Notes: a model not told the origin generated them from the letters alone. A DNA stretch of 44,933 bases from Candidatus Taylorbacteria bacterium RIFCSPLOWO2_02_FULL_44_35 (GCA_001822695.1 MHSF01000021.1:993-45925), one strand, 5' to 3'. Numbered from the stretch's first letter, positions 8,948-44,933 are shown. Translations and numbers: made by a program.

Positions 8948-8967
8948 TTTCGTGATATCATGTCTTT

Positions 8968-9531: not shown

Positions 9532-9536
9532 CTGTA

Positions 9537-9564
9537 TTGACAATGTCCTTACATCTGCTAGAAT
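9537..9564 (+). promoter_or_regulatory. Canonical sigma70-type promoter for the toxin-antitoxin pair
   Basis: TTGACA (9537-9542), 16-nt spacer, TAGAAT (9559-9564), about 30 nt upstream of the ATG at 9594. Confidence 0.55.
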
Positions 9565-9593
9565 AAAGATCATTAACATTAAATAATAAAAAT

Positions 9594-9869: not shown

Positions 9870-9872
9870 TAA

Positions 9873-10151
9873 ATGTATATCACCAGACCAACAAAACAGT
9901 ATCGGAGGTCATTAAAAAATCTCCTACGGTCAGGTTCTTTTGATGATAACGAATTGCAAAAAGTAATTGACACTTTGTCTTGCGGTAAAATGCTGGAACT
10001 AAAGTATAGAAATCATAAATTACAAGGTGAGTTTTCTGACTGCTTCGAATGCCACCTCAACAATAACTTATTGTTCATCTATCGAATTGATGAGAAACTC
10101 AAGATCTTAAGCATAATTGACATCGGCACTCATTCCGATTTGTTTGAATAA
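9873..10151 (+). CDS. yafQ: YafQ/RelE-family mRNA interferase toxin
   Basis: YRNHKLQGEFSDCFECHLNNNLLFIYRIDE...IGTHSDLFE matches the YafQ pattern (H-x-L-x-G....R/F-E-C-H-I....LL-I-Y...G-T/S-H-S-D-L-F). Confidence 0.8.
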   Translation: MYITRPTKQYRRSLKNLLRSGSFDDNELQKVIDTLSCGKMLELKYRNHKLQGEFSDCFECHLNNNLLFIYRIDEKLKILSIIDIGTHSDLFE

Positions 10152-10195
10152 AAATTTTAGGGAAATGAACAAGATTTTAAATTTTTTAAAAAAAC

Positions 10196-11191
10196 TCATA
10201 CCGCGAAAAATTTTTCCATCAATCTTTGTTTTAATCTCCAACTTTCACAATGCGACAAAAGCCCCAGATAGGAAAACAAGTTTCTATTATTTATCATCCT
10301 AAACATTCTATTTTTAGTTCTTGTCCGCAAAACCACCCGATGGGGCAAAACCACATAGTCAAGAAAATCCGTTCCCCGGTGAATCTTCCGAACTATTGTC
10401 TTTCGGTCATGTAAATCCAACAAAAGAAATTCCCGACAAAACTTTTTGATTTCCTCCGCCCACTCCAATAAAATCTCGCGCGATTGATGTAAAATCACAA
10501 AATCATCGCAATAACGAATATAATATCTTGCTTTTAATTCATGTTTAATAAACTGGTCAAGCTCATTCAGATAAATGTTAGCGAATAGCTGACTGGTAAC
10601 ATTGCCTAACGGCAAACCTTTCCTATGCGAATACTCAAAAGAGCAAACGATTTTCTTAACAAGGAATAGCAACTTTCTGTCATTTATTTTCCTTGCAATC
10701 AACGAGAGTAAAATTTGATGATCAATTGAATCAAAAAACCTCTTGATGTCGCATTTCAAGACAAAGCTCGTGCTTCTGTGATTCATTGAAACTTTCCGAG
10801 CAAAAACAACGAACCTTTTTACCCCAGAGTGTGTTCCCTTTTGGAACCGCGACGAATATAAATCGTGAATAAAACTCGGGTCAAAGACTTGGTATAGCTT
10901 GTGATAAACCGCTTGAAACAAAACTCGGTCGCGAACACTCGCTTTATGAATAATTCTTGGTTTGGGATCGTCTACCTTAAAAACAACATAGGGGTCATTC
11001 CGCCAATTTCCCTCCACCAATTTGCGATGTAATTCAAAAATGTTATCCTCCAGGTTAAGCTCAAAAGCAACGACATCGGGTTTCCTTCTTTTCCCTCTCC
11101 GAAAATCTCGCCAGGCCGCAAATAAATTATCGAGCGAAATTACATCATAAAAATCACAACTATGACGCCCCCCCCCCAGCGATTTGCCCAT
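10196..11191 (-). CDS. Reverse transcriptase of the DGR type
   Basis: RT motifs VLKCDIKRFFDSIDH, LPLGNVTSQLFANIYLNELD (the DGR-typical [LI]GxxxSQ instead of the group II intron QGxxxSP) and YIRYCDDFVIL. The N-terminus NLFAAWRDFRRGKRRK is typical of DGR RTs. Confidence 0.85.
   Translation of the reverse strand: MGKSLGGGRHSCDFYDVISLDNLFAAWRDFRRGKRRKPDVVAFELNLEDNIFELHRKLVEGNWRNDPYVVFKVDDPKPRIIHKASVRDRVLFQAVYHKLYQVFDPSFIHDLYSSRFQKGTHSGVKRFVVFARKVSMNHRSTSFVLKCDIKRFFDSIDHQILLSLIARKINDRKLLFLVKKIVCSFEYSHRKGLPLGNVTSQLFANIYLNELDQFIKHELKARYYIRYCDDFVILHQSREILLEWAEEIKKFCREFLLLDLHDRKTIVRKIHRGTDFLDYVVLPHRVVLRTRTKNRMFRMINNRNLFSYLGLLSHCESWRLKQRLMEKFFAV
11168..11177 (-). repeat. G10 homopolymer (C10 on the plus strand) inside codons 5-8 of the RT
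   Basis: The minus strand reads atg ggc aaa tcg ctG GGG GGG GGG cgt. It is also only 7-19 nt upstream of the possible TTG starts of the divergent avd-like ORF. Confidence 0.95.
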
Positions 11192-11528
11192 TATTTTGAA
11201 AATCAGGCTTTTGCATAAAAATATCTATACTGTTGGCGAAAAATTAAACAAGCGAGACAAACTTGGTATTCATAAAGAAATTGATAACTTATGTATCCAA
11301 TGCCTAGCTTTAGCAATTGAAGCCAAGTTTTGCCCACCTCAAACAAAAAATATCCCCCTGGAAACATTGAGAATCAAAATCTCTGTCCTGAAAAATCTGA
11401 TCCGCACAGAGAGCGAGCTTAACATTATCAATGAAAAAATTTATCTTCGGCTAGCAGAACAAGCGGTGGAAATTTCAAAAATGACAAGCGGATGGCTTAG
11501 TTCCCTAACGCAAAAAGGACTTTGGTAG
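11184..11528 (+). CDS. avd: Avd-like four-helix-bundle protein (23S rRNA intervening-sequence protein family)
   Basis: 114 aa. IYTVGEKLNKRDKLGIHKEIDNLCIQ...LRIKISVLKNLIRTESELNIINEKIYLRLAEQAVEISKMTSGWLSSL has the family pattern, including the C-terminal E-I-x-K-M-x-x-G-W. It is divergent from the RT and overlaps it by 8 nt. TTG start. Confidence 0.7.
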   Translation: MPIILKIRLLHKNIYTVGEKLNKRDKLGIHKEIDNLCIQCLALAIEAKFCPPQTKNIPLETLRIKISVLKNLIRTESELNIINEKIYLRLAEQAVEISKMTSGWLSSLTQKGLW

Positions 11529-12277
11529 TCCTTTCGGCGAGAAATTTCTAGGCGGAAACGCAAGTAGTCACAGTCATAGTGCGGATACCAGTAGCTGACA
11601 GAGACCTTGCGAGAGGGCGAGTCGAAATTAACACTCGGAACATTGCCACTCGCGGTACGCGAACCGGCACAGAGTGTGATCACTTTCCGGTCAAGGTGTT
11701 TGCCTGTCTTCAAGAGATAGGTATCACCGTCGATGAGCCGCTCGGGCAATGTTGTCGTGGCGATGCTTCGGTCCCAGATCTGCTGGGAAGAGAGATTTTC
11801 TCCGTTGACATTGCCAAACTCGGCTTCCTGCGTATCCCGGACCCTGATGGCATAGGTGCCGCTCCGGGCGTGGCGAGTAACCACCGAGTCGAGATTGTCG
11901 TTGAACTGCCGCCAATAGAAACCTTTGTCGACACAGCGCTTCTTGTAGACCGAAGCGATGGGATTGCATTTGTTGGCAATCGCCTCATGCATAACAATGA
12001 GACGGGTCGGGTAATCCGCAGGTGCGGGCACTTGGAGTTCGCTGAAATCGGCAGCGATGTTGTAGTTGTCGAGGTAGTATTCCTGCCACCACTGGGCTTC
12101 CTTGGGAGAGATTTTCATCCGTTTTGGGAAACCGCTATTCCTGATGACACCAAGTACCGTCTGGCATAGTGACTCATTTTGGGCGAGCGTTGTGAAGTCA
12201 ATGATCTCCCACCCTGTTTTCGCACAAGTAATTGCCAGCTCATGGGCTTCACTACAACCGAATTCTGATGCTTTCAT
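11441..12277 (-). CDS. Putative DGR target protein (278 aa) with a VR-like C-terminal segment
   Basis: C-terminus CAGSRTASGNVPSVNFDSPSRKVSVSYWYPHYDCDYLRFRLE is built mostly of NNY codons and ends in hydrophobic-R-F-R, like C-type-lectin-fold variable regions. It is G+C-rich (line 11821-11880 has 40/60 G+C, versus 20/60 in RT line 10201-10260). The last 29 codons run antisense through the avd 3' end. Confidence 0.6.
   Translation of the reverse strand: MKASEFGCSEAHELAITCAKTGWEIIDFTTLAQNESLCQTVLGVIRNSGFPKRMKISPKEAQWWQEYYLDNYNIAADFSELQVPAPADYPTRLIVMHEAIANKCNPIASVYKKRCVDKGFYWRQFNDNLDSVVTRHARSGTYAIRVRDTQEAEFGNVNGENLSSQQIWDRSIATTTLPERLIDGDTYLLKTGKHLDRKVITLCAGSRTASGNVPSVNFDSPSRKVSVSYWYPHYDCDYLRFRLEISRRKDYQSPFCVRELSHPLVIFEISTACSASRR
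11514..11534. terminator. 8-bp stem / 5-nt loop hairpin at the avd stop, downstream of the VR-like segment
   Basis: aaaggact-ttggt-agtccttt. It could be a bidirectional terminator, or the hairpin found 3' of DGR variable repeats. Confidence 0.5.
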
Positions 12278-12439
12278 GTTTTTCCTTTTTCTTTTTGGAC
12301 TTATTCTCTTTTATCATCCGCTCCACCTTAGGTGGGCGGTAAAAGAAAACTTATCCGCTTGTTTTCAAAGGACCGCTAATAGGATAGCATATATGAATAA
12401 TTAAGTCAAGTAGAAAATGGCTATAATAACCGCTATCAT

Positions 12440-13756
12440 TTGGATGTGAATAAACTCTTATTTCTAGCCAAAAAATTGATACCCGAAAGAATTTTTGTAT
12501 TTTTTCAGCCGGCCTATCACTGGCTGCTGGCAATGCTGGCGGCAATCATTTATCGCTTCCCTTCCCGAAAAATTAAAGTAATTGCCGTTACCGGCACCAA
12601 AGGTAAAAGTTCGGTTTGTGAATTAGTGAACGCAATTTTGGAAGAAGCCGGTTATCAAACGGCGCTGGCTTCCACTATCCGCTTCAAAATCGGCGAGCGG
12701 ACAGCGCGCAATTTTTTCAAAATGACTATGCCCGGCCGATTTTTTGTCCAGAAATTTTTGCGACAGGCGGTAAAAGAAAATTGCGATTGGGTGATTTTGG
12801 AAATAACCAGCGAGGGCGCCCGGCAATTCCGGCACAAATTTATTGACTTGGATTCGCTGATTTTCACCAATCTGGCGCCGGAACATATTGAATCGCACGG
12901 CTCTTACGAAAAATATCGCGACGCTAAACTTTCCATTGCCCGGTCTTTGGAAAAATCACCAAAATTAAACAAAACAATAATTGCCAACATAGACGACAAA
13001 GAGGGCGCGAAATTTTTAGTGGTTAATGTGCAAAATAAAGTTCCCTATCAATTGGAAGACGCCAAACTTTACGGCCTAAAATCAGATGGTTTGGAAATGA
13101 TGTTTGATGGCGAGAAAATAACCTCGCGCCTGCGCGGAATTTTCAATATCAATAACATTCTCGCCGCCGCCAATTTCGGTAAAGTATTGGGAATTTCTAC
13201 TTTAGCGATTAAAAGAGCGATTGAAAAAGTTGAAGAAATAAAAGGCCGGGCACAGATTATAAAAACCGACAAATTTGAGGTGGTGGTTGATTACGCCCAC
13301 ACACCCGATTCGCTTCGCGCAATTTATCAAGCATTTCCCAATAAAAAAAAGATTTGCGTTTTGGGCAATACCGGCGGCGGCCGCGACAAATGGAAACGGC
13401 CAGCTATGGGCAAAATTGCCGACGAATTTTGCGATGAAATAATTTTAACCAATGAAGACCCTTACGACGAAGACCCTCGCGCGATTCTCGCTGATATGGA
13501 AAAAGGTTTTAGCCGGCATAAGCCGGAAATTATTATGGACAGAAGGGAGGCCATTAGAGAAGCCCTTCGATTCGCGAACGGCACCCTAAATCCGCCCGTT
13601 GGTGGATCGGGTGCCCGTAATCAAAACGACGCAGTCGTTTTGATTACGGGCAAGGGCACCGACCCGTTTATTATGAGTCCGCGCGGCAGTAAAATTCCCT
13701 GGGACGACGAAGAAGTGGCAAGAGAAGAATTGGAAAAATATGCCAGAATTGCCTGA
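12440..13756 (+). CDS. murE: Mur ligase, MurE-like (UDP-N-acetylmuramoyl-tripeptide synthetase)
   Basis: IAVTGTKGKSSVCELV (P-loop), DYAHTPDSL and LTNEDPYDEDPRAIL are Mur ligase/MurE motifs. TTG start in the track. Confidence 0.75.
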   Translation: MDVNKLLFLAKKLIPERIFVFFQPAYHWLLAMLAAIIYRFPSRKIKVIAVTGTKGKSSVCELVNAILEEAGYQTALASTIRFKIGERTARNFFKMTMPGRFFVQKFLRQAVKENCDWVILEITSEGARQFRHKFIDLDSLIFTNLAPEHIESHGSYEKYRDAKLSIARSLEKSPKLNKTIIANIDDKEGAKFLVVNVQNKVPYQLEDAKLYGLKSDGLEMMFDGEKITSRLRGIFNINNILAAANFGKVLGISTLAIKRAIEKVEEIKGRAQIIKTDKFEVVVDYAHTPDSLRAIYQAFPNKKKICVLGNTGGGRDKWKRPAMGKIADEFCDEIILTNEDPYDEDPRAILADMEKGFSRHKPEIIMDRREAIREALRFANGTLNPPVGGSGARNQNDAVVLITGKGTDPFIMSPRGSKIPWDDEEVAREELEKYARIA

Positions 13757-16262: not shown

Positions 16263-16421
16263 ATCCAAAATGTAACATTGGCTGTCAAAAACGTAAATGA
16301 AAAATGCAAAAATCAAAATTAAAAATTATAGTGTAAAATCTTAAAATTTTTTCTTTTTGAATTGTCATTTTTCATTTTGATATTTCAACTTTACATTAAG
16401 GTGTGGTACAATCACACTGTT

Positions 16422-16943: not shown

Positions 16944-17031
16944 AACAAAACTGGATTTTTGATATTTTCTCTGTTATATTTGTCTGGAGATTAAAATTTT
17001 TCATTTTGATTTTTACATTTTAAATTCTTGA

Positions 17032-17820: not shown

Positions 17821-19194
17821 TTACCCGAACTTTTTCATCATACCCCAATTGTCGCCCACTGACACATCGGCGACAATCGGCACTTCCTTGGTTTCCGAAA
17901 GCGGCAGGACATTTTCCATAATTTCTTTAATTTTCGGCGCTACCGCGCTGACCAAATTTTCGGCGGTTTCATAGACCAATTCGTCATGAACTTGGAGCAG
18001 GAGAAAAACTTTTTCCAACAACTTTTCCTTGCGCAAAAATTCAGCCACCTGCGCCATCGCGATTTTAATGACATCCGCTTCTGTCCCTTGAATCGGCGCG
18101 TTAATAGCCATCCGTTCAGCGGCGGCGCGAATAAAAGGAAGGGGTGATTTGAAACCTTCAAAGTAGCGCCGCCTACCAAAATAGGTCTCGGTGAAGCCCC
18201 GTCGCGCCGCTGCTGCTCTGGTTTCGTCCAGATATTTTGCTAAACCAACGAAGGTTTGAAAATAATTTTCGTAAAATTTTTGCGCCTCTTTTCTGTCCGT
18301 GCCTAATTGTTGCCGCAAAGCGTTTACCCCCATGCCATACATCACGCCAAAATTAATGACCTTCGCCCGCCGGCGCATTTCTTTAGAAACTTCATCCAAC
18401 GGCACATTGAAAACCCGCGAAGCTACCGCCGCGTGAACATCAGCGCCGGCTTTGAAAATTTCAATCAATTTTTTATCGCCCGACAAAAAAGCGGCAATTC
18501 GCAACTCTATCTGTGAATAATCAAAACTCACCAATTCAAAACCAGGTGTCGCCACAAAACCTTCCCTGATTTCTCGCCCAACATCGGTTTTGTTGGGAAT
18601 ATTTTGAAGATTGGGCTCGCGCGAAGCCATTCTGCCCGTAGTTGTTCCGGCTTGAATAAAAGTGGTGTGCAATCGTCCGGTCTTATCCACCAACGCCGGC
18701 AGCGGAACAATATAGGTGCCGAGCAATTTCGCCAATTCGCGATGCTCCAAAATCAAAGGAATAATCTGGTGGACTTCGCGTAACTTTTCCAGTTCCGATT
18801 CTTTGGTGGAAAGCATTCCAGTTTTTGCGGTTTTTTTCTGATTCTTGGCTTTCAAGCCCAATTTGACAAAAAGCACTTCGCCAAGCTGTTTCGGAGAACT
18901 AACATTAAAATTAACGCCGGCCAGTTTCCAAATTTGCTTTTCCAATTCAGCCAGCCGCGCCCGATATTTTTCTGATAATTTTTTAAAAATATTTTTGTCC
19001 AACAAAACTCCTCGTTCATTCATCTCTTTCACCACCGGCAAAAGCGGTTTTTCTATTTCCTCAAAAATTTTCAGCAAATTTTTCTTTTTCAGTTCTTCAA
19101 ATAAAATCTGGCGGGCTTCATCGGCTTTTTTGGTTTTAGTAAATTCTAAAATTTCCTCTGTTTGGGGTCGGTCTTGGCCGAATTCAATAACCAA
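17821..19194 (-). CDS. polA: DNA polymerase I, polymerase (palm/fingers/thumb) part; downstream half of a frame-split polA
   Basis: Family A motifs RLHTTFIQAGTTTGRMASREPNLQNIP, SFDYSQIELRIAAFLSGD, RRRAKVINFGVMYGM, LLLQVHDELVYE. The track 'start' is a TTG with no ATG nearby, and the frame continues homology begun in 19146..20234. Confidence 0.85.
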   Translation of the reverse strand: MVIEFGQDRPQTEEILEFTKTKKADEARQILFEELKKKNLLKIFEEIEKPLLPVVKEMNERGVLLDKNIFKKLSEKYRARLAELEKQIWKLAGVNFNVSSPKQLGEVLFVKLGLKAKNQKKTAKTGMLSTKESELEKLREVHQIIPLILEHRELAKLLGTYIVPLPALVDKTGRLHTTFIQAGTTTGRMASREPNLQNIPNKTDVGREIREGFVATPGFELVSFDYSQIELRIAAFLSGDKKLIEIFKAGADVHAAVASRVFNVPLDEVSKEMRRRAKVINFGVMYGMGVNALRQQLGTDRKEAQKFYENYFQTFVGLAKYLDETRAAAARRGFTETYFGRRRYFEGFKSPLPFIRAAAERMAINAPIQGTEADVIKIAMAQVAEFLRKEKLLEKVFLLLQVHDELVYETAENLVSAVAPKIKEIMENVLPLSETKEVPIVADVSVGDNWGMMKKFG

Positions 19195-20234
19195 ACCATT
19201 ACTCCCAATTCTATTTCTTCCTCTCTTGAGAATTTATCTGTTTTTAAAGCTATTGAAGCTTCAGCAGCTAAGGAAGCCTCGCCTAACGGACGGGCAGGTA
19301 TCTTGCTACCACCCAACATCTGTTCAAACCTCGCCCCCAGTGTCCGAAATTCTAACTCATTGAAAATTCTTTTAACTTTTCCCAAATCAACCGACTGGCG
19401 CCAGTTTTGCGCCGGCAATTTAAAATCAATCGGCGCGTCGGTTCTGATGGTTGCCAAGGTTTTGGAAAACAATGCTTCCTCCTCGTTTTTTTCCAAAAGT
19501 TCAATAATCCTCGGTTTGATGCCCGCTTCGGCAAAAACTTTTTTATCTTGCCGCAATTTTTCATAAATTTCTTCAATGGCGCCGAAATTTACGATTAAAT
19601 TGGTTGCCGTTTTTTCACCGATACCCGAAACACCGATAATATTGTCCGACGGGTCACCAGCCAAACCCTTGTAATCAGGCAGAAGTTTCGGCCCAAAACC
19701 GAATCGTTCCAAAACTTTTTTTTCGTCATACAAAATCGTGTCGGAAATTCCCTTACGCAAAGTAAATACCAGCACCTTATCGCCGGAAACAAGCTGTAGC
19801 GTATCCATATCTCCTGACGCAATAATTATTTCAATCTCTTGTAACGTGTAACTTATAACTTGTAACTTTTGGACAATCGTGCCGAGAATATCGTCAGCTT
19901 CAAAACCCGGACAGTCGTAAATGGGAATATTAAAAGCGGCAAAAATATCGCGGGAGCGTTTTAATTGGTTAATTAAATTGCCTTCGGCTTTCGGCCGCTG
20001 GGCTTTATAGCCTTCGTAGGCGACATGGCGATGAGTCGGACCCGGCAAATCGTAAGCGGCAACAAGATAATCCGGTTTTAAATCGGCAATCAGTTTTATG
20101 AGCATCGCCGCCAAGCCATATAATCCACCTGTTGGCTCGCCTTTGGCGGTCGCAAAATCCGGTAGGGCGTGATAAGCACGATGAATTATGGCGTGGGCGT
20201 CCAAAAGCACCAGACGTTTTTTCTTATCAGTCAT
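19146..20234 (-). CDS. polA: DNA polymerase I, 5'-3' exonuclease part plus linker; upstream half of the frame-split polA
   Basis: LLDAHAIIHRAYHAL, GFEADDILGT, SGDMDTLQLV, DNIIGVSGIGEKTA (5' nuclease/HhH motifs). It ends ...VWLLNSAKTDPKQRKF*, where the other frame reads ...QTEEILEFTK. Confidence 0.85.
   Translation of the reverse strand: MTDKKKRLVLLDAHAIIHRAYHALPDFATAKGEPTGGLYGLAAMLIKLIADLKPDYLVAAYDLPGPTHRHVAYEGYKAQRPKAEGNLINQLKRSRDIFAAFNIPIYDCPGFEADDILGTIVQKLQVISYTLQEIEIIIASGDMDTLQLVSGDKVLVFTLRKGISDTILYDEKKVLERFGFGPKLLPDYKGLAGDPSDNIIGVSGIGEKTATNLIVNFGAIEEIYEKLRQDKKVFAEAGIKPRIIELLEKNEEEALFSKTLATIRTDAPIDFKLPAQNWRQSVDLGKVKRIFNELEFRTLGARFEQMLGGSKIPARPLGEASLAAEASIALKTDKFSREEEIELGVMVWLLNSAKTDPKQRKF
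19838..19868. repeat. Family A 'GTAAC-word' element lying in frame inside the polA 5'-nuclease domain
   Basis: cttgtaacgtgtaacttataacttgtaactt. 26/31 identical to 8848-8878. 19848-19868 is identical to 44510-44530. It encodes KLQVISYTLQ between the conserved ADDILGT and SGDMDTLQL motifs. Confidence 0.8.
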
Positions 20235-25805: not shown

Positions 25806-25906
25806 AAGTTCCAAATCTCAAATTCCAAGTTCCAAACAAATTTCAAATTTTTAATATTTAATTTTTAACCATTGTTTGTGATTTGGATTTTGGAGCTTGG
25901 AATTTA
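25806..25906. repeat. 'TTCCAA-word' palindromic element (family B), copy B1
   Basis: Left arm aagttccaaatctcaaattccaagttccaaacaa, AT-only loop, right arm ttgtttgtgatttggattttggagcttggaattt. Confidence 0.75.
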
Positions 25907-32070: not shown

Positions 32071-33411
32071 CTAAAACATCGCTCTAATTTGGGAAATTTC
32101 TTGAGCTAAGGTGGTGTCGTTTTTTATATCATCTTCTATTTTCTCGCAAGAGTGAATAACTGTGGTATGGTCGCGGCCACCCATTTTTTCACCAATCGAC
32201 GGAAAGGAAATGTTGAAATCTTTTCTTAAAACATACATCGCAATCTGGCGCGGCCGGACTATTTCTTTACGGCGAGTTTTTTCGTAAATAGAGGCCTCCT
32301 CAATATTGTAGAAGTTGGCGATGGTTTTGACCACATCTTTTGGGGCGATGGATTTTTTGGGCCGATCGGTATTTTTAATTAGGTTTTTTACTTCAACCAA
32401 AGAAAGATCTTTATTTTTAAATTGGGACTGGCAAATAATTATGTTTAGGGCGCCTTCTAACTCCCTAATACTACCAACCACCGAGTCGGCCAAATACTCA
32501 ACAATTTCATCAGCTAAGAAAAAATTACTGAACCGCGCTTTGGTTCGCAAAATAGCCAAACGCGACTCGTGGTCTGGTGTTGGAATGTCGACAATCATAC
32601 CCGAAACACACCGTGACTTGAGTCGGTCTTCCAAATTAGGAATGTAATTGGGGTGTTTGTCGGAAGAAAAAATAATCTGGCGATTGTTGTCATGCAAACT
32701 GTTAAACAAATGAAAAAGTTCATCCTGAGTTCGTTCGGTCTTGGAGAAAAACTGGATATCGTCCATTATCAGCACATCATATTTGCGGTATTTTTCTTTG
32801 AAATCGTTCATTTTTTGATTTTGGACAGCGTTAATGTAATCAACGGTAAATTTTTCCGAGGTGATGTAAAAAACTTTCCTTTCCGGCGAATTGATTTTAA
32901 TTTGATTGCCAACCGCTTGAATTAAATGGGTTTTGCCGTGGCCGCTGCCGCCGTAAATGAATAAGGGATTGTAGGCAACTGGTTTTTTAATTATTGACTG
33001 GGAAGCGGCGTGAGCCAGTTCGTTAAACGAACCAACAACAAAAGCGTCAAAGGTATAACGGGGGTTTAAATTATTTTCTTTGTTGATGTAATGTTCTTTC
33101 AGCGGCAATTCAATGGTCGGCGCTAATGAAAACTTTTCGGTTTCGTTAGTTTTCTTCCGCAGTTCTTTTTCGGAGACAACATATTCCACCGCCCTAACAA
33201 AATCAACCAGACCACGCAAGGTTTTCAAAATCGTTTTGTGGTATTTTTGTACTAACCAATCCTTAACAAAAGTGTTGGGCACGGTTAAATAAACTGTGCC
33301 GTCTTGAAGATTGGCAATACTTGTGTTCTTGAACCAAGTGTTGAAAGTGGCCCCAGAAACACCCAACTCAATTTCAGCCAAAACACTATCCCAAAGTTTT
33401 TTATTGTCCAT
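32071..33411 (-). CDS. dnaA: Chromosomal replication initiator DnaA
   Basis: NPLFIYGGSGHGKTHL (Walker A), VLIMDDIQF (Walker B), the sensor region and the C-terminal DNA-binding helix GGRDHTTVIHSCEKI. Confidence 0.95.
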   Translation of the reverse strand: MDNKKLWDSVLAEIELGVSGATFNTWFKNTSIANLQDGTVYLTVPNTFVKDWLVQKYHKTILKTLRGLVDFVRAVEYVVSEKELRKKTNETEKFSLAPTIELPLKEHYINKENNLNPRYTFDAFVVGSFNELAHAASQSIIKKPVAYNPLFIYGGSGHGKTHLIQAVGNQIKINSPERKVFYITSEKFTVDYINAVQNQKMNDFKEKYRKYDVLIMDDIQFFSKTERTQDELFHLFNSLHDNNRQIIFSSDKHPNYIPNLEDRLKSRCVSGMIVDIPTPDHESRLAILRTKARFSNFFLADEIVEYLADSVVGSIRELEGALNIIICQSQFKNKDLSLVEVKNLIKNTDRPKKSIAPKDVVKTIANFYNIEEASIYEKTRRKEIVRPRQIAMYVLRKDFNISFPSIGEKMGGRDHTTVIHSCEKIEDDIKNDTTLAQEISQIRAMF

Positions 33412-33604
33412 TAAGATTATTATACTAATGTTTCTATTATACAGAACTTGTGAACAACTCTTAAATATGTTAGTAATATGTGGACAAATTGTTTACAACA
33501 ATTTGTAAGTTCCAAATCACAAATTCCAAATTCCAAACAATAATTAAAAATTAAATATTGAAATTTGTTTGGAGCTTGATAATTGGAACTTGGAAATTAC
33601 AACC
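33412..33604. other. dnaA/rpmH divergent spacer, candidate oriC part
   Basis: DnaA-box-like 9-mers TGTGGACAA (33479-33487, one mismatch) and TGTGAACAA (33449-33457, two mismatches). It also carries family B repeat copy B2 at 33507-33598. Confidence 0.35.
33507..33598. repeat. Family B palindromic element, copy B2 (loop in opposite orientation)
   Basis: aagttccaaatcacaaattccaaattccaaacaa - taattaaaaattaaatattgaaat - ttgtttggagcttgataattggaacttggaaatt. The loop resembles the reverse complement of the B3/B5 loop. Confidence 0.75.
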
Positions 33605-38830: not shown

Positions 38831-38942
38831 AAATCCCCCGGCTTTCGCTTCGCTCAACCCACCCCCTTTTCAAGGGGGATTTCAGGTTATCCAATCTCCT
38901 TTGTAAAGGGAGTACCCGAGTCTGCGAGGGGGAGGGATTTTT
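38831..38942. repeat. Composite GC-hairpin repeat, modules Y then X (swapped order relative to 16828-16943)
   Basis: aaatcccccg[...]cccaccccctttt-caaggggga ttt ... atctcctttgtaaagggagta[cccgagtctgcgaggg]ggagggattttt. Module X supplies the last ~18 codons of the VirB4-like ORF (...SLPLADSGTPFTKEIG*). Confidence 0.8.
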
Positions 38943-41900
38943 CTCCCCCACCTCCCTCCGCCGCCTCCAGCTCTTGACGGGCTTTTTTGATGGCTAAAAT
39001 TTGCGACGGGTCGGAGGTGATAATTTGGTCTTCGGTATAGGAAGCGATGATTTTGATGGCCACATGTTTCAAGCCGGCGAAGAAAATCCCTTCCCCCACA
39101 TCCGATTCCAGCAACAGGAATTTTTCTTCATCGGTCAAATTAAAAATCTGCTGAATTTTATCTATTACCGAAGTGGACTGCTTTAACAAAATCTGAATAG
39201 ACGAGTTGGTGATAATCGGTAAGCCATAAGATGATTTCAAAAAATCATCCACATCCTGGGTAATGGTCGCCAAACCGAGAAAATATTTGCGGCCGCGTTT
39301 TGCCAGTGACAGCAAAAACGATGCCGTGTCCTCGGATTTCATCATCCACCAAGCCTCATCAATCACCAACAGCCGTTTTTTTAATTTTTTCCTGATGGCG
39401 TTCCAAATGAAGTGGGTAACGATATACATCGCCACCGGTTTCAACTCCTCTTCCATATCGCGCAAGGAGAAAACAACGAACTTGCCGTCTATGTCAATGT
39501 TGGAAGGCTGGTTGATGAAACCGGTCCAAGTGCCGTGAGTATATTTGGCGAGCCGCTGGACGAGCGCTTCACCGCCTTCCATTCCCGCCAGCACCATTTC
39601 AAAATCGGACATCAGCGGCGGTTCAACGGCCGCGAAATCGCTGTCAATGTTAATATCTTTTAAAGCGTAGGTTTCGGTAATCGCTCGGTCAGTAATTGAG
39701 TCCTCTTCCGGCGACAAACCGCCGAGCATTATCCGGAACAAGCCGACTAGGTTGATGATGTGGGAACGCAGGACATCGGCCGGCGACTCGTCTTCGCGCG
39801 CCACCGGCAGTTCAAAGGGGTTGATGTGGTGTTCGGAAGTCAGTGAAATGTTGAAATACTTTCCGCCGGTGGCGTTAGCCATATATTCATATTCTCGTTC
39901 CGGGTCAAGCACCAAAATATCCACATCAAACATCAGCGAGCGCAGAATTTCCAATTTAGTCATATAGGAATTGTGAACAAACATTCCGGCGTAACCAGCC
40001 GCGAACACTTCGTTATCCACCGTCAAATCATACACATATTTTTCTTTGTGATTTTTGATTCTCTCAACCCTGACGATGGGGTCCCAAAACAAATCGGCGT
40101 TGGCGAGTTTTTCTAAGGTAGCGATGATTATTTCCGCTTTGGGTAAAGCCGTTGCCAATTTCTCGTAATATTCCATTATTCTTTCAGCTGCCACCCGCAA
40201 GGTTTCGTAAGAAGTATTGCGTTGGGGCATTTGATTGATGGTAACGCCAAGATGGCGGTCAATACTTTTCAGTGGCAAATTTAATTTGTGGCAACCGGTG
40301 GCAATTGCCATTTTTACTTCCCCAACCGTGGGACTGGCGTTATCCAAAACAGACATCAAAGCGAAAGCATTTTGAGCGAGCGGGGCGAATCTTTGGTTTT
40401 TCATAACTGACCAGCTAGTGCCAAGAGTTTGCCAAAGGCGATGATTGATAATTTTATCAGTGCTGGCCTCACTAAGCATTTTTTCCAGTGGCGGTAAATT
40501 AACCAAACATTTGAGCCCAGTTTCCATTTCCCTGAAGGTGACCAATTTTTGTTTGAGTAGCTTAATCACACGGCTTAGCCGGCGTGGCGAGGGATTACTT
40601 TTGCCAGTTCTCAAAACATTGATTTCCGGCAAGCCTCGGGTGGCGAACGGGAAGACGACATTGAGTTCCTCAATCAAATTTCTAACGGTTGGAATGACAT
40701 CAACATTAGTGTTGCTTTCGGCTCTCTCGGCAAGTTGGTGGTTTAAGCCGCATTTTCTTTCGGAAACAAAGCCGATGTTTTTGGCAAAACAGGCAACATT
40801 TTCTTTTCCTGAAATCGCGAGTTGCCAGTATATTCTTTTTCTTCCAGTCATCGGATTTTTCTTGCGGCGGGCTTTAACCCTAGCGATAACATCAAAATAG
40901 AGTAATAGATAGGAGAGATCCGAAATCAAATTTTTTGATTTGGAAACCGCGGAAATAAGATTTTTTTCCACTCCGCCGTCGCCTTCAAAATAGGAAGCGA
41001 GATAAGCAGCAATAATTTTTCGTTCAGAACCGAAGAGAAACGGCGGCACTCGTTTGTCGGCGGATTTACCTCCAACGCCAAGCACTTTAATTAATTGCAG
41101 AAATGGCCGGCTGGCAGCGACAATTCCTCGATTGGCTTCAAAACAGGAGACCGCCAAATTTTCAAATGCTTTTTTGATGTCAGCGATAACTTCTTTGTCC
41201 GTGTTGCTTATCATAATTGCGGTTTCGGTAATTGTTCCTTCCGAAGTGATATAACCGAGGATTTTGGCAAAGTCCTCGGTGATTGGAAAAATAACAGGAA
41301 GTCGGCCGCTGCCGTTGGCGGTAACGATCTCAAGTTTTTGTAATCGGTCATTATTAATTTCTAATCCAATTTTTTTGATGACTTTGAAAAAATAATCAAG
41401 CGGCATTCTCCGGCCGACGCGGTATTTGTAAAGGTATCGGTCAAAACGGTTATCAATCGCACCCCCGGTAATATTTTTGTAATTCTTGTTTATTATTGAA
41501 TCGGCCCCGACGACATAAAGTTTTTCATCTTTTAGCAATTCCAGCAAATTGAAGTTTTTGTTTGGATTTTCCGGCGGTGCGATAAGCCGCGGCAGAGGCG
41601 TCCATTCGCCAACGGCGACATCGGCACTTTTTGTCGCCGCCACCCGACCGTTTTTGATAACCAGCATATTATGGTCGCCGGTGGCCGTAATCATCCGACC
41701 GCTTTGGGTTTGGAATTTGTAAAAAACAACAGGGGCGATTTTTCTGGCGGCAACTGAGACCTCGCTCCACTCGCCCTTCAGTTCTTTGTTGAAACTCCAA
41801 ACTTCAATGGCAGGACTGTGGACACCTTCCAATTCTTCGTCACGGTAAGTAATGCCGTGTTTTTTTATGGAGTCGTCTACAATTTCTTTAATCGGACGAA

Positions 41901-42741
41901 GATTGATGACGCCGTTTTCTTTGGCTAAGACCACTTCATTTCCATGAATGCTTTTACCCGAACCCGATTTGGCGAAAACAATGGAGTTAAAATTTTCTAA
42001 CGAGAAGCGGTCAAACAAAACCAGCGAGGAATTGTGGCGGTTGATGCCGTAGAGGACGCCTTTGTCGGAAGTCAGGTCAAAAGAGACGAAAGGAAAAATA
42101 CCGGACAAGGGCGAGGAATTTAACTTGGTATGAACCAAAAGCTCGTCGTCAGCGGTGGGAATGACGCTGCGGAAACCTTGTTCCTGCTGGAACAGCGCCG
42201 GTTTCAAATAGACCAATTTGGATTCCAACATTGATTTGATTTCCGATTCCAGACGATTGAGTTCGGTTTCATCGTCGGCGAAAATGGAAATGTAAAGGCC
42301 GACGTCAAAAATTTTCTCGGTCGCTTGCTGGAGGGCGTCGCGCAAATTTTCCAAGTCCTGATAAGCGGTGTCCAGTTTCGGGTCGCGCACCATACCCTTT
42401 TCTTCCCGCAAGTGAATTTGGCTCTGGACTTCGGCGACTTTTTTCTGGAATTGGCGCAAAACACGAGAAGTTTCCACCGGATGAATAAAAATGGAAACAT
42501 TAAAAACTTTGTCCAGATTGATGATCGGTGTGAACCAGCTTTCGGACAAGTAGCGCGGATAGGAAATGACGAAGAAAGTCCGAATCAGTTTTTCGCCCAA
42601 GTTAATTTCTTTCGGGTTAACCTTGAAGGCCGACGGGGCGATGATGTCCCGCAATTCCAAAACGCCGGCCTCGTAAATTTCCTGCGGCAAAACCGGCGCA
42701 ACCGGCAATCTATTTTTTTTGAAGATATCAAGAAATCCCAT
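38887..42741 (-). CDS. virB4: VirB4/TrsE/TraC-type T4SS ATPase interrupted by an intein (1284 aa precursor, 623 aa after splicing)
   Basis: N-domain typical of Gram-positive VirB4 homologues. Walker A FAKSGSGK|S...|SYMTKLEIL is split by the intein. Walker B RLLVIDEAWWMM, then GRKYFLGLATITQ. Confidence 0.85.
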   Translation of the reverse strand: MGFLDIFKKNRLPVAPVLPQEIYEAGVLELRDIIAPSAFKVNPKEINLGEKLIRTFFVISYPRYLSESWFTPIINLDKVFNVSIFIHPVETSRVLRQFQKKVAEVQSQIHLREEKGMVRDPKLDTAYQDLENLRDALQQATEKIFDVGLYISIFADDETELNRLESEIKSMLESKLVYLKPALFQQEQGFRSVIPTADDELLVHTKLNSSPLSGIFPFVSFDLTSDKGVLYGINRHNSSLVLFDRFSLENFNSIVFAKSGSGKSIHGNEVVLAKENGVINLRPIKEIVDDSIKKHGITYRDEELEGVHSPAIEVWSFNKELKGEWSEVSVAARKIAPVVFYKFQTQSGRMITATGDHNMLVIKNGRVAATKSADVAVGEWTPLPRLIAPPENPNKNFNLLELLKDEKLYVVGADSIINKNYKNITGGAIDNRFDRYLYKYRVGRRMPLDYFFKVIKKIGLEINNDRLQKLEIVTANGSGRLPVIFPITEDFAKILGYITSEGTITETAIMISNTDKEVIADIKKAFENLAVSCFEANRGIVAASRPFLQLIKVLGVGGKSADKRVPPFLFGSERKIIAAYLASYFEGDGGVEKNLISAVSKSKNLISDLSYLLLYFDVIARVKARRKKNPMTGRKRIYWQLAISGKENVACFAKNIGFVSERKCGLNHQLAERAESNTNVDVIPTVRNLIEELNVVFPFATRGLPEINVLRTGKSNPSPRRLSRVIKLLKQKLVTFREMETGLKCLVNLPPLEKMLSEASTDKIINHRLWQTLGTSWSVMKNQRFAPLAQNAFALMSVLDNASPTVGEVKMAIATGCHKLNLPLKSIDRHLGVTINQMPQRNTSYETLRVAAERIMEYYEKLATALPKAEIIIATLEKLANADLFWDPIVRVERIKNHKEKYVYDLTVDNEVFAAGYAGMFVHNSYMTKLEILRSLMFDVDILVLDPEREYEYMANATGGKYFNISLTSEHHINPFELPVAREDESPADVLRSHIINLVGLFRIMLGGLSPEEDSITDRAITETYALKDINIDSDFAAVEPPLMSDFEMVLAGMEGGEALVQRLAKYTHGTWTGFINQPSNIDIDGKFVVFSLRDMEEELKPVAMYIVTHFIWNAIRKKLKKRLLVIDEAWWMMKSEDTASFLLSLAKRGRKYFLGLATITQDVDDFLKSSYGLPIITNSSIQILLKQSTSVIDKIQQIFNLTDEEKFLLLESDVGEGIFFAGLKHVAIKIIASYTEDQIITSDPSQILAIKKARQELEAAEGGGGEKSLPLADSGTPFTKEIG
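39970..41952 (-). mobile_element. 661-aa intein with a LAGLIDADG homing-endonuclease domain, inserted after the Walker A lysine
   Basis: Begins S-IHGNEVVL (Ser1). Block B is ITATGDHNMLV. LAGLIDADG blocks are AKILGYITSEGTI and AAYLASYFEGDGGV. Blocks F/G are YVYDLTVDNEVFAAGYAGMFVHN, followed by Ser+1. Removal restores GSGKSY. Confidence 0.85.
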
Positions 42742-42750
42742 TTATTTAAA

Positions 42751-42848
42751 AAGTTCCAAGTTCCAAATCACAAGCTCCAAACAAATTTCAATATTTAATA
42801 TTAAATTTTAATTATTGTTTGGAATTTGGATTTTGTAATTTGGAATTT
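42751..42848. repeat. Family B palindromic element, copy B3
   Basis: aagttccaagttccaaatcacaagctccaaacaa - atttcaatatttaatattaaattttaatta - ttgtttggaatttggattttgtaatttggaattt. 42771-42830 is identical to 43991-44050 (60 nt). Confidence 0.85.
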
Positions 42849-42867
42849 ATGCCTTTATTTTACCATT

Positions 42868-43242
42868 TCAAACGCTTTTATTCACAATGGAACTGAATAT
42901 TTTGATAAACTCGGTCGTTTCATTGGCCAACCGCCGTCGTTCTGTTTCTAGTTCTTTATCATTTCCAACATCAATCAAATCTAACCAAAATCAACTTTCT
43001 TTGGCTTCTTTGCGGGAAATTCTGATTCTCATGGCGAAATCTTTCTTACCCAAACATTCATTTGCCTCAATGTAATTCGCGCCGATTGACCCCGACAATC
43101 TGACCAATTGACGAGAGTCCTCGAAATTAGCAACATTTTTTGGGATTTTTTTTACAAAAATTCTGATATTTTTTGCAAAAAGCAAAGTTCTTTCTTCTAA
43201 CTTAAAGGGCACTGGCGTTTCTTTTCTTTGGTCATTCTCCAT
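42868..43242 (-). pseudogene. Four-helix-bundle (Avd / 23S rRNA IVS protein family) gene with an in-frame TGA
   Basis: The track ORF ends ...ANYIEANECLGKKDFAMRIRISRKEAKES*. Reading through the TGA at 42991-42993 continues in frame as FWLDLIDVGNDKELETERRRLANETTEFIKIFSSIVNKSV*, which is the expected rest of the family (KES-x-YWL...L..E..E..KIf..I). Confidence 0.65.
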
Positions 43243-43266
43243 TTAACTTTTTAATTTTATTTAGAT

Positions 43267-43300
43267 TTGTTTGGAATTTGGAGCTTGGAATTTGAAATTT
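43267..43300. repeat. Family B half element (right arm only), copy B4
   Basis: ttgtttggaatttggagcttggaatttgaaattt. Confidence 0.7.
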
Positions 43301-43306
43301 ATCCAG

Positions 43307-43966
43307 CTAATTCTGATTTAGCTGGATGGGTTTTTCCATCTCACCGGGATTGAAAATTTTGTAAAACAATTCAATCACCTCTTCGGTGCCGAGCGAAGCG
43401 GTGCGCAAGCCGCAACGCGCCAACCCTTGATTTACCACCCCAACGCGTTCCTCAATTTGCAGCCGGTCCTCTTCAAATCGTTGGATTTTCGCCACCGCCG
43501 CGTCGGTGGCTTCCTCCCGCCGGCCCAAAAATTGTTTGATCGGATTGCCTTTGACCGCCAACATCGCCGGTGAATAAGGAATGGTCACAAAAAAACTTTT
43601 GCTCATGATGTTGGTGTTCTCGGTGAAATTTTTGATGAAGCCGATGTATTCGTGGGTCTGGATTTTCATCAGGTCGTTGCTCTGTTCTTTGAGCCGCTCT
43701 TCCAGCAGGGCAAGATAAGGTCTAATGTCCAGCCGGCGCGATTGAATAAAAATCTGGACGGAGAAATCCAGCGAGTTAAGAAAATTTTGAAACTGGCCGA
43801 TAATCGCCTGTTGTTCGTCTTCGCCTTTCAGGGCGAAATTGATTGAAGACACCAAAAGAATTGCCCGATAAGAGCCGTTTTTCAAAACAACAATACCGTC
43901 CCGCACTTCTTTGATGGGCACAAAATCCTGGGTCGGTTTGGGCTTAGAAAAATTAAAAATAACCAT
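43307..43966 (-). CDS. Hypothetical protein resembling the N-terminal domain of VirB4-type ATPases
   Basis: FVPIKEVRDGIVVLKNGSYRAILLVSSINFALKGEDEQQAIIGQFQNFLNSLDFSVQIFIQSRRLDI parallels the N-domain pattern of the adjacent VirB4-like protein. ATG 43966 chosen over the track start at 44005. Confidence 0.45.
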   Translation of the reverse strand: MVIFNFSKPKPTQDFVPIKEVRDGIVVLKNGSYRAILLVSSINFALKGEDEQQAIIGQFQNFLNSLDFSVQIFIQSRRLDIRPYLALLEERLKEQSNDLMKIQTHEYIGFIKNFTENTNIMSKSFFVTIPYSPAMLAVKGNPIKQFLGRREEATDAAVAKIQRFEEDRLQIEERVGVVNQGLARCGLRTASLGTEEVIELFYKIFNPGEMEKPIQLNQN

Positions 43967-43984
43967 AAGTTCATTATACTTGGA

Positions 43985-44068
43985 TAAGTTCCAAGCTCCA
44001 AACAAATTTCAATATTTAATATTAAATTTTAATTATTGTTTGGAATTTGGAACTTGATATTTGGAACT
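43985..44068. repeat. Family B palindromic element, copy B5
   Basis: aagttccaagctccaaacaa - atttcaatatttaatattaaattttaatta - ttgtttggaatttggaacttgatatttggaactt. Confidence 0.85.
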
Positions 44069-44496
44069 TACTTCCTCATTGTTTCCTGTGTCCCCGGGTT
44101 TGTTTGGTCGTAAATGTCCAAACTCCAAGTGAGGTCTTTGAGCCGGCTTTCCGACAGGCGCGGCACGGTGATGGGCGTTCCTTCCGTTGCTTTGATGTCT
44201 TTGCCGGTTGGCGTTTTGGGCACTTTGCGCCAGATGTAGAGCCGGCTACCGCGGAAAAAGTGGAAAGCCGATTCCAAAACGGCGATGAAGTTCCGGCCGT
44301 TCAATTTGAAAAAAGCCAAAGCTAAAGCGAAACCGGCAGCGGCTAATATCAAAGGAATGGCGATGAGCAAGGGCAAGAAACGATAAAGGGCGAAACAGAA
44401 ACCGGCGCCGCCGGCAAGGTAAATAAACTGCTTCAGGGTTAGTGGCCCAAAGATTCTGTCTTCTACTTCAATAAATTGCGGGATCTGGAAACGCAT
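44068..44496 (-). CDS. PrgI-family (VirB3-analogous) T4SS membrane protein
   Basis: MRFQIPQFIEVEDRIFGPLTLKQFIYLAGGAGFCF..., followed by two TM helices, is the PrgI-family N-terminal pattern. Confidence 0.65.
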   Translation of the reverse strand: MRFQIPQFIEVEDRIFGPLTLKQFIYLAGGAGFCFALYRFLPLLIAIPLILAAAGFALALAFFKLNGRNFIAVLESAFHFFRGSRLYIWRKVPKTPTGKDIKATEGTPITVPRLSESRLKDLTWSLDIYDQTNPGTQETMRK

Positions 44497-44500
44497 AGTC

Positions 44501-44540
44501 CTATAACATGTAACTTATAACTTGTAACTTAAGATTTGTA
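44501..44540. repeat. Family A 'GTAAC-word' element, left flank of a four-helix-bundle gene
   Basis: ctataacatgtaacttataacttgtaacttaagatttgta. It shares gtaacttataacttgtaactt with 19848-19868. Confidence 0.75.
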
Positions 44541-44542
44541 AT

Positions 44543-44902
44543 TTATAATTTTCTTAAAACACCCCATAACATTGCTCCAATTTTTTCCGTCAAATTTAAT
44601 AATTCATCATATTCTTTATCGTCCAGATATTTTCTTTTGTGAGAAAAATAAATCAGATATTTACTTTCTTTAAGTGAACCATAAGATATCTCTAGGAAAT
44701 TTTTCAAGACGGCATTTCTTTGTCTGGCAAAACCCTCAATGTAATTTAGAATGACTGATAAAGCGGCTCTTCTTATCTGACTTGTAACTCCATAAATCTC
44801 CTCTTTGGGAAAATGCCTCGTCCCATCATAGATCTTATTCACATATTCATCCATTAGCATTTTCAACTTGCTGTGGAAATCATTTTCTTTATTTTCTCTC
44901 AT
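44543..44902 (-). CDS. Four-helix-bundle protein (Avd / 23S rRNA intervening-sequence protein family), intact solo copy
   Basis: FPKEEIYGVTSQIRRAALSVILNYIEGFARQ...FLEISYGSLKESKYLIYFS...EYDELLNLTEKIGAMLWGVLRKL is the textbook pattern of this family. Confidence 0.85.
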   Translation of the reverse strand: MRENKENDFHSKLKMLMDEYVNKIYDGTRHFPKEEIYGVTSQIRRAALSVILNYIEGFARQRNAVLKNFLEISYGSLKESKYLIYFSHKRKYLDDKEYDELLNLTEKIGAMLWGVLRKL

Positions 44903-44907
44903 TTTTT

Positions 44908-44933
44908 AAGGTTACAAGTTACATGTTACAAGT
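44908..44933. repeat. Family A element, right flank of the four-helix-bundle gene (runs to the window edge)
   Basis: aaggttacaagttacatgttacaagt. Its reverse complement acttgtaacatgtaacttgtaacctt is made of the same words as 44501-44540. Confidence 0.7.

Follow-up and report, generated by a model that had tools for sequence, protein, structure and literature searches.

How does a gene of the family known from 23S rRNA intervening sequences come to stand, twice, between the genes of a protein-coding operon? The question is raised by a 44,933-nt stretch of DNA from Candidatus Taylorbacteria bacterium RIFCSPLOWO2_02_FULL_44_35 (GCA_001822695.1, MHSF01000021.1:993-45925), the whole of which is called the window below. 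Its final 6 kb is a single minus-strand gene run, which is part of the chromosomal type IV secretion system (T4SS) of Patescibacteria [PMC12102498]. Two genes for four-helix-bundle proteins, ivpA and ivpB, lie in the spacers of this operon, and each is bracketed by inverted arrays of short repeats. We conclude that ivpA and ivpB are probably intervening-sequence-type guest cassettes living in mRNA operons. Contigs identical to the window were found in many groundwater metagenomes and in the NCBI assembly GCA_001822705.1.

Intervening sequences (IVSs) have for decades been treated as an oddity of rRNA genes, and we know of no function assigned to their conserved open reading frame (ORF). ORF-bearing IVSs of 23S rRNA occur in Coxiella burnetii and are also reported for Leptospira (PMC4990558 and references therein). 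The Coxiella IVS is 428 nt long and is closed by a terminal stem of 28 bp, a substrate of RNase III in vitro; directly before the start codon of its S23p gene stand two to three GACAGAT heptamers in tandem, in a copy number that varies between strains [PMC4990558]. ORFs of the same family, PF05635, have been found in rRNA insertions of the Candidate Phyla Radiation (CPR) [PMC11270868].

A reading of the window from its sequence only had assigned two ORFs, besides one linked to a reverse transcriptase (RT), to the Avd/23S IVS protein family, and profile searches bear this out. ivpA scored 98.0 bits with PF05635 (E 4.5e-28, cut-off 33.8) and 98.4 bits with TIGR02436 (cut-off 24); ivpB, with its stop codon masked, scored 39.4 bits (E 7.6e-10) and 58.3 bits, respectively. 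In sequence, ivpA resembles XCC0516 (2GSC; E 2.4e-10), a pentameric protein of solved structure. The family motif GxxRxxxSxxxNxxE [PMC3936711] reads YGVTSQIRRAALSVILNYIEG in the translation of ivpA and RLSGSIGANYIEA in that of ivpB, in which R-x3-S-x3-N-x2-E is retained. The intervening-sequence proteins (IVPs) had no match to any defence system in PADLOC, and a search of a phage collection gave no IVP homologue.

Whereas ivpA is intact, ivpB is interrupted by an in-frame TGA at 42991-42993, which leaves 83 aa open. An orthologue that is 91% identical, at locus L101 of a relative, reads CGA (Arg) at this codon; thus, the ivpB of the window is a recent nonsense pseudogene. The dN/dS ratio (nonsynonymous to synonymous substitution rate) between the two copies is 0.13, and the gene was therefore constrained until the recent nonsense mutation: purifying selection acted on the ORF, and decay followed. 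All sampled contigs of the population have the truncated 83-aa product as a gene call, so the pseudogene seems to have become fixed there. Synonymous divergence between the window and L101 is 0.28 in ivpB and 0.50 in the adjoining VirB4 segment, which, for one pair with few sites, hints that the ivpB cassette may be younger than its host context or may have been exchanged.

The arms of both cassettes are inverted arrays of tandem heptamers (Table 1), in gene orientation TTGTAAC...GTTACAA for ivpA and ATTCCAA...TTGGAAT-type for ivpB, whose unit can also be written TTCCAAA/TTTGGAA. The 5' arm of ivpA begins directly after the TAG stop of the upstream 274-aa gene (p274), which lies just past the end of the window; the sequence-only reading had located this arm at 44908-44933, correctly as to place, but the arm runs 8 nt beyond the window. 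The 5' arm of ivpB starts 8 nt past the TAG stop of the TrsD-like gene. On the other side of ivpB, the repeat had been described as a flanking arm at 42751-42848, and here the earlier description holds for the place, but not for the layout, because this segment forms a complete hairpin by itself. Of its two arms, the outer one pairs with the 5' arm of ivpB and the inner one is a direct repeat of that arm; the hairpin ends 9 nt short of the VirB4 ATG. The ivpB cassette of the window thus has the layout arm, ORF, full hairpin, whereas the orthologous cassette of L101 is a simple arm-ORF-arm.

Pairing of the arms was computed against 500 dinucleotide shuffles per cassette. The arm duplex of ivpA has a free energy (dG) of -32.2 kcal/mol, compared with -11.3 +/- 2.9 kcal/mol for the shuffled arms (z -7.1), and that of ivpB has a dG of -28.6 kcal/mol (z -4.5); in neither case was any of the 500 shuffles as good. 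When the whole ivpA cassette was folded, both the minimum free energy (MFE) and the centroid structure closed the ORF by a terminal stem of about 36 bp, which takes in the UAG on the upstream side and, on the downstream side, the first base of the AUG. The z-score of the whole-cassette fold was just -1.67 because the ORF dominates the energy, and the arm-duplex shuffles were used instead. Stem boundaries obtained with duplexfold on 90-nt flanks were over-extended and noisy, and were replaced by the gaps between stop codon and ATG. With its ORF and two arms, a cassette measures about 440 nt. The geometry of a small ORF in the loop of a long stem, which the earlier reading had compared with rRNA elements, is supported, and the likeness extends to tandem heptamers such as those beside the S23p start codon of Coxiella [PMC4990558]. 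A survey of flank pairing around every gene of the window gave a single strong value outside the IVP genes, around a PilN-like gene; this candidate was rejected as a cassette, as it is a GC-rich chance match inside coding sequence and has no heptamers.

The host of these stems is a protein-coding operon. Its genes are, in order, p274, ivpA, the PrgI/VirB3-like gene, the TrsD/TraC-like gene, ivpB, and VirB4, so that both cassettes lie between protein-coding genes and not in a helix of 23S or 16S rRNA. An Rfam scan of the window gave only four tRNAs, with no rRNA and no match at the stems. Counts of promoter-like and terminator-like sites between 38000 and 44933 were not above those of shuffled sequences. 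We also note that ivpB separates an ORF that resembles the N-terminal domain of VirB4, the TrsD/TraC-like gene, from the main VirB4 ATPase ORF.

The same layout recurs widely. We collected 79 unique genome loci of Patescibacteria by similarity to ivpA. Nearly every ORF in them has tandem 7-mers (at times 8-mers) directly before it and the reverse complement after it. The units vary from locus to locus (ATGAAAC/GTTTCAT, CGTACAA/TTGTACG, CTCATAT/ATATGAG, the octamer ACATATTA, and others), as does their copy number, while the two arms of a locus remain complementary. Periods of 7 and 8 were the only ones detected in the flanks, in about half of them at a strict threshold, compared with 11 of 316 control segments. 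The median dG of the flank duplex was -35.7 kcal/mol for arms of the same locus and -23.6 kcal/mol for arms swapped between loci (p 4e-17, 79 loci). An independent sample of 80 operon loci, chosen by the TrsD-like gene and not by the IVP, showed the same layout with further units; about 21 of the 80 have at least one cassette. Three Avd-like genes in 45 kb had been called striking for a streamlined genome, which was overstated because such cassettes are common in Patescibacteria.

Beyond this group, heptamer arms were found in seven of eight cyanobacterial or Gemmatimonadota plasmid copies, and one plasmid cassette is located between cas10 and cmr3. In Lysobacterales, the accB-accC spacer is occupied by close homologues of XCC0516 in Xanthomonas, Stenotrophomonas, a Lysobacter-type contig, Dyella, Dokdonella, and others. 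There (GGGAATC)n begins 2-6 nt past the accB stop, and (GATTCCC)n stops, in most, exactly at the accC ATG. This cassette has been kept from Xanthomonas to Dokdonella with a protein identity of about 75-90%. At L192/L193 both arms are altered in concert, to GGGATTC/GAATCCC, a compensatory change at an orthologous site. In Xanthomonas (L184, 1424-1475), where the chain numbering of 2GSC was matched to the DNA, the IVP would start with a GTG inside the GGGAATC array, and formation of the stem would then hide the cassette's own start codon. Because the Coxiella IVS has the features given above, and because PF05635 ORFs occur in rRNA insertions of the CPR, the rRNA element and the operon cassettes are of one design.

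The cargo of such arms was searched for in all locus DNA, as split periodic inverted arms 150-1600 nt apart. Among 69 arm pairs, 48 enclose an IVP-like ORF by an automated rule. Nine of the other 21 also enclose an IVP on inspection (seven Lysobacterales loci, L019, and L061); the automated rule had passed over them because in these loci the boundary of the ORF extends into the arms. At L109 the arm pair surrounds the host PrgI gene, one of its arms being the 3' arm of the preceding cassette, the pair at L024, examined individually, encloses no ORF, and the remaining pairs are located in loci that also have hairpins or cassettes of similar units. No recurrent cargo besides the IVP was found among the 69 pairs.

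These results bear on the simplest alternative, that the repeats are ordinary AT-rich low-complexity spacer sequence unrelated to the ORFs. Heptamer arrays and hairpins are indeed common in the spacers of the window, with an ORF or without one. The shuffles (z -4.5 to -7.1) and the much better pairing of own-locus than of swapped arms nevertheless contradict a coincidence, as does the fact that cyanobacteria and the GC-rich Lysobacterales have the same layout built from quite different units. We regard this explanation as refuted by the shuffle, arm-swap, and cross-phylum comparisons, with next to no probability left to it.

The cassettes are placed with precision. Each takes up the spacer between the stop codon of one gene and the start codon of the next; the median distance is 39 nt on the 5' side, up to the IVP ATG, and 42 nt on the 3' side, between the IVP stop and the following ATG. 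In the operon sample, 5' arms start within a few bases of the upstream stop, and 3' arms end about 0-8 nt from the downstream ATG. All 55 cassettes that lie between co-directional genes are in the sense orientation (55/55, binomial p 6e-17), and in the operon orthologues every cassette is in sense, with no minus-strand hits. The 5' arm is purine-rich in 37 of 50 loci, which is weak evidence for a strand-specific role. As a separate observation, the host gene upstream of a cassette ends in TAG in about 11 of 13 cases read by eye (drawn from L083, L101, L111, L114, L128, L141, L145, L149, L164, and L169), while empty junctions mostly have TAA; the 5' end of the cassette may supply or alter the upstream stop codon.

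Turnover was examined in close relatives, in which the TrsD-like protein is 85-94% identical. Empty sites, which the sequence-only reading had proposed to seek in related T4SS loci, were found at three junctions. The junction of TrsD with VirB4 is empty (TAAATG, TAGATG) in L095, L096, L099, L100, and L102, and holds ivpB in the window and L101. That of p274 with PrgI is empty (TAATATG) in L100 and L102, is occupied in the window by ivpA and in L103 by another cassette, and in L099 retains a leftover 5' arm of an L103-type cassette; unrelated hairpin elements occupy it in L095, L096, L097, and L101. That of PrgI with TrsD is empty in five relatives (including L095, L100, and L102); the window has a hairpin there, and L097 and L101 have cassettes that are dissimilar. 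Close relatives thus differ by gain and loss at one and the same junction. Terminal inverted repeats and insertion polymorphism, as in a miniature inverted-repeat transposable element (MITE) or DNA transposon, are both present, and the suggestion of a mobile cassette family is supported to this extent. Across the 80 loci there are about 13 IVPs at p274-PrgI, about 7 at PrgI-TrsD, and 5 at TrsD-VirB4, with only 27-61% identity to ivpA or ivpB and different arm units; at p274-PrgI, at least 13 loci have cassettes that are dissimilar. The stop/start junctions of the operon seem to be hot spots for several repeat families. GC-rich nested hairpin repeats of about 230 nt, with a dG down to -91 kcal/mol, lie at the p274-PrgI junction of close relatives (L095/L096 380-650, L101 1360-1630, L099 365-560).

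The placement could also be explained if the stem and the protein had been recruited by the host as an operon module that tunes expression or stability of the flanking genes (AccB:AccC, PrgI:TrsD:VirB4). The arms that abut stop and start codons so precisely would suit this explanation, and so would the dN/dS of ivpB, the long retention at accB-accC with compensatory arm changes, and the Xanthomonas GTG start within the 5' arm. However, close relatives manage without cassettes at the same junctions, where unrelated cassettes and unrelated hairpin families are found instead; the ivpB of the window is a pseudogene in all sampled contigs, and the Coxiella ORF is decaying as well. The same cassette type also occurs in very different operons (cas, T4SS, acc, rRNA). 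We therefore consider a host-serving module improbable, and guest cassettes remain our preferred reading of ivpA and ivpB.

The window also contains heptamer hairpins that have no ORF (Table 1). The family-A hairpin shares its heptamer unit and the inner boundary AACTTAAGA with the ivpA cassette. The four family-B hairpins have a common loop, and they match the intact L101 cassette at both of its ends but lack the ORF; for these two reasons they look like cassettes with an internal deletion. The ivpB cassette is on its way to becoming another such hairpin. Of 145 hairpins in the other loci, 20 have 7-mers in common with the cassette of their own locus, compared with 4% for cassettes of other loci. 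A third family (AAATGAA/TTCATTT type) has no matching IVP in the window; a related unit fills the p274-PrgI spacer and flanks an IVP in L097.

Could an RT have moved these elements? Avd family proteins bind the RTs of diversity-generating retroelements (DGRs), and the sequence-only reading had suggested that the RT of the window (10196-11191, minus strand) mobilises the cassettes. In this explanation, the Avd-like proteins would partner the RT, which would copy hairpin-bounded RNA into new sites; the sense-only orientation would fit an RNA intermediate. ivpA and ivpB, however, are 31-34 kb from the RT and have no template or variable repeat near them. Within the examined flanks, an RT was found at 2 of the 79 genome loci and at none of the 80 operon loci (157/159 without RT), and the cassettes of Lysobacterales and cyanobacteria lie in ordinary operons. 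Against the DGR Avd equivalog NF033474 (cut-off 80), ivpA scored 28.9 bits and ivpB had no hit; ivpA also has a sub-threshold match to bAvd. The Avd-like ORF that is linked to the window RT (11184-11528, plus strand) is divergent and has sub-threshold Avd matches only; heptamers are absent from its flanks, and BLAST gave no similarity between it and ivpA or ivpB. No pair of repeats resembling a template repeat (TR) and a variable repeat (VR) was found beside the RT within 9400-12700. The RT and this ORF (context 9594-12277) adjoin a RelB/YafQ toxin-antitoxin pair.

The two loci with an RT in their flanks, L025 (1380-2420) and L027, are of the Peregrinibacteria type. Four features are lined up in both: an ivpA-like gene, with 68% and 66% identity, between heptamer arms; a template-like repeat; a heptamer hairpin that has the same unit but no ORF; and the RT. 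This arrangement favours retro-mobilisation and tells us that heptamer cassettes can sit inside DGR-like loci. Weighed with the counts above, mobilisation by the RT is nevertheless very improbable. In summary, the observation made from the sequence was confirmed, and its interpretation is partly supported.

As guest cassettes, the elements would work as follows. A cassette without its own promoter would be transcribed as part of the host polycistron. Its arms would fold into a duplex of about 25-36 bp, which would put the upstream stop codon beside the downstream start codon at the base of the stem. Like the stem of the Coxiella 23S rRNA element, this duplex may be a substrate of RNase III. 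Such a self-closing stem could make insertion tolerable both in an rRNA helix and in a tightly (translationally) coupled operon junction. The four-helix-bundle protein is a putative nucleic-acid-binding pentamer that would act on the heptamer arrays; the dN/dS of 0.13 and the order-wide retention at accB-accC mean that it matters to the element or the host. To function of the stem at the RNA level, including its processing, we give about an even chance.

Several points weigh against this reading. Selection on the sense strand at the RNA level predicts an excess of G.U among arm mismatches; we counted 49 G.U and 54 A.C, which is no excess and fits a DNA-level constraint or a copying process equally well. 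We are cautious about RNA-level function because this comparison, one discriminating test, has no RNA-specific signature. Folding in vivo and RNase III cleavage in this organism are assumptions made by analogy, and an RNase III gene was not among the ORFs scanned, which were those of the window only. Retention at accB-accC across a whole order with a conserved protein suggests host benefit or addiction-like dependence and not plain selfishness. The loci were collected by protein similarity and are phylogenetically related; therefore, the counts cannot be taken as numbers of independent events. No target-site duplication was evident when filled and empty junctions were compared by eye at two sites, with boundaries uncertain by a few bases. 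No transposase or recombinase was found among the window ORFs scanned, and the only ORF of a cassette is the four-helix-bundle gene. Because none of these three was found, mobility is inferred from patterns of presence and absence only.

The mismatch counts also favour another possibility, that the heptamer arrays act as DNA, as a hairpin or cruciform in single-stranded form that is recognised in trans, possibly by the putative pentamer, with the RNA stem as a by-product. Dispersal of ORF-less hairpins with the unit of the local cassette in the same genome (families A and B of the window) would agree with this, as would the 20 of 145 hairpins that resemble their own cassette. The unit of the Xanthomonas cassette is GGGAATC, a heptamer enriched in Xanthomonas, of which about 70 convergent or inverted pairs are present there [PMC4692102]; in addition, the arm copy number varies as replication slippage would give. 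On the other hand, the protein family has no known catalytic activity, and neither a target-site duplication nor defined ends were seen. The sense-only orientation and the purine-rich 5' arms point to a strand role linked to transcription, which a replication-strand bias could mimic. A DNA-level foldback is thus unlikely, though a stronger candidate than recruitment by the host.

Because the arm units of cassettes match dispersed ORF-less hairpins (families A and B, Xanthomonas GGGAATC, and the 20 of 145 above), a relation like that between repetitive extragenic palindromes (REPs) and REP-associated tyrosine transposases (RAYTs) is suggested, in which the putative pentamer would act on its own arrays. 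We put this forward as a hypothesis only. Extended further, PF05635 genes enclosed by inverted heptamer arrays would make up a single class of cassettes, spread across phyla, that invades operons and rRNA. Unexplained heptamer repeats (Xanthomonas GGGAATC, cyanobacterial repeats, and Patescibacteria hairpins) would derive from its ORF-less descendants, and its putative pentamer would be a trans-acting recogniser of its own arrays. It would be a type of mobile element without a known transposase, in which the stem keeps the insertion harmless to the host RNA. This extended proposal is tentative and, in our estimate, more doubtful than not.

Table 1. Cassettes, host genes, and heptamer hairpins of the window
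Feature	Position	Strand	Remarks
ivpA	44543-44902	-	intact 119-aa four-helix-bundle gene; PF05635/TIGR02436
ivpA 5' arm	44903-44933, +8 nt past window end	-	4 tandem heptamers TTGTAAC/ATGTAAC
ivpA 3' arm	44497-44542	-	GTTACAA-type heptamers (gene orientation); ivpA stop codon to PrgI/VirB3-like ATG
ivpB	42868-43242	-	four-helix-bundle pseudogene, internal stop; PF05635/TIGR02436
ivpB 5' arm	43258-43300	-	ATTCCAA/GCTCCAA heptamers (gene orientation)
Complete family-B hairpin, 3' side of ivpB	42751-42848	.	outer arm 42751-42793, inner arm 42815-42848
PrgI/VirB3-like gene	44068-44496	-	T4SS component, host gene
TrsD/TraC-like gene	43307-44005	-	host gene, separate 232-aa ORF; resembles VirB4 N-terminal domain
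VirB4 ATPase with intein	38887-42741	-	host gene, 1284 aa; LAGLIDADG_3 endonuclease domain in intein
ORF-less family-B hairpin	43986-44069	.	fills spacer between PrgI and TrsD
ORF-less family-A hairpin	8849-8950	.	spacer between rpsT and ruvA
ORF-less family-B hairpin	25808-25900	.	between yebC-like gene and ruvC; loop sequence common to B copies
ORF-less family-B hairpin	33505-33600	.	dnaA-rnpA spacer
Third hairpin family, AAATGAA/TTCATTT type	16286-16380, 16985-17021	.	spacer between SpoU methylase and DoxX; beside tRNA

Two further observations concern heptamers elsewhere in the window. The hairpin in the dnaA-rnpA spacer is located where a replication origin is expected, between dnaA (32071-33411, minus strand), which is followed by dnaN on the minus strand, and rnpA (plus strand). 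A run of 4.4 copies of a TTGTAAC-type heptamer, the unit of the ivpA arms, lies at 19838-19868 inside a coding region for a 5'-3' exonuclease (residues about 122-132, QKLQVISYTLQ); the protein length looks normal, and the run may be due to chance or convergence. This exonuclease ORF (19146-20234) is one half of a DNA polymerase I that is split in the window (17821-20234), the polymerase-domain ORF (17821-19194) overlapping it by about 49 nt.

In the literature searched, no paper ties solo PF05635 genes to inverted heptamer arms, with the exception of the Coxiella description. Solo PF05635 genes bracketed by co-varying inverted heptamer arrays appear to be undescribed there as a general rule, and so do the sense insertion between stop and start codons, the ORF-less descendants, and the link to Xanthomonas GGGAATC. 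The unit of ORF and heptamer-array stem lies between essential genes (T4SS, accBC, cas) in Patescibacteria, Cyanobacteria, Gemmatimonadota, and Gammaproteobacteria. If our reading is correct, the rRNA elements are a special case of a general guest-cassette design, and the widespread "four helix bundle protein" paralogues gain a context in which they can be studied. The reported "association" of the PF05635 family with cas operons [PMC3936711] would then simply reflect insertions. The Xanthomonas GGGAATC repeats would gain a candidate origin, since the local accB-IVP-accC cassette has the identical unit. Annotation should then also allow for cassettes, which split operons and mimic accessory genes of the surrounding system. 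The accB-XCC0516-accC locus of Xanthomonas, with a protein that has already been crystallised, is a culturable test system.

Among known systems, the Avd proteins of DGRs (bAvd; NF033474, PF22296) share a homologous four-helix-bundle fold with the IVPs, ivpA matches them below threshold, and two ivpA-like genes lie in DGR-like loci; ivpA and ivpB differ in being remote from an RT, with no TR/VR pair nearby and scores under the equivalog cut-off. As in REP/RAYT systems (REPtrons) and in MITEs with their parent transposons, a coding copy is flanked by an inverted repeat that is also dispersed as short ORF-less intergenic palindromes, the ORF-less copies resemble internal deletions of the coding copy, and presence or absence varies between relatives. 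The cassettes are unlike these systems in that the enclosed gene is no recognisable transposase (not Y1/HUH), no target-site duplication was seen, and the arms are tandem heptamer arrays with a lineage-specific unit. Like the intergenic heptamers of Xanthomonas and Nostoc (GGGGAYT) [PMC4692102] and of Beggiatoaceae (TAACTGA) [PMC4679880], the arms are tandem 7-mers in spacers, often as convergent pairs. Both papers treat the heptamers as G-quadruplex or regulatory motifs, and the names of the IVP family were not found in their text; the Xanthomonas repeat GGGAATC is the exact arm unit of the accB-IVP-accC cassette. A further comparison is that of the window cassettes with the 23S rRNA IVS of Coxiella. 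The host RNA here is a protein-coding operon and not helix 9, 25, or 45 of 23S rRNA, the cassette ends abut stop and start codons and extend no rRNA helix, and excision by RNase III, which has been shown for the Coxiella IVS, is presumed for the window cassettes by analogy. The two have in common a protein of the PF05635 ("S23p") family, a length of about 430-440 nt, an ORF in the loop of a stem of terminal inverted repeats, copy-variable tandem heptamers just before the start codon, and an ORF that is prone to decay.

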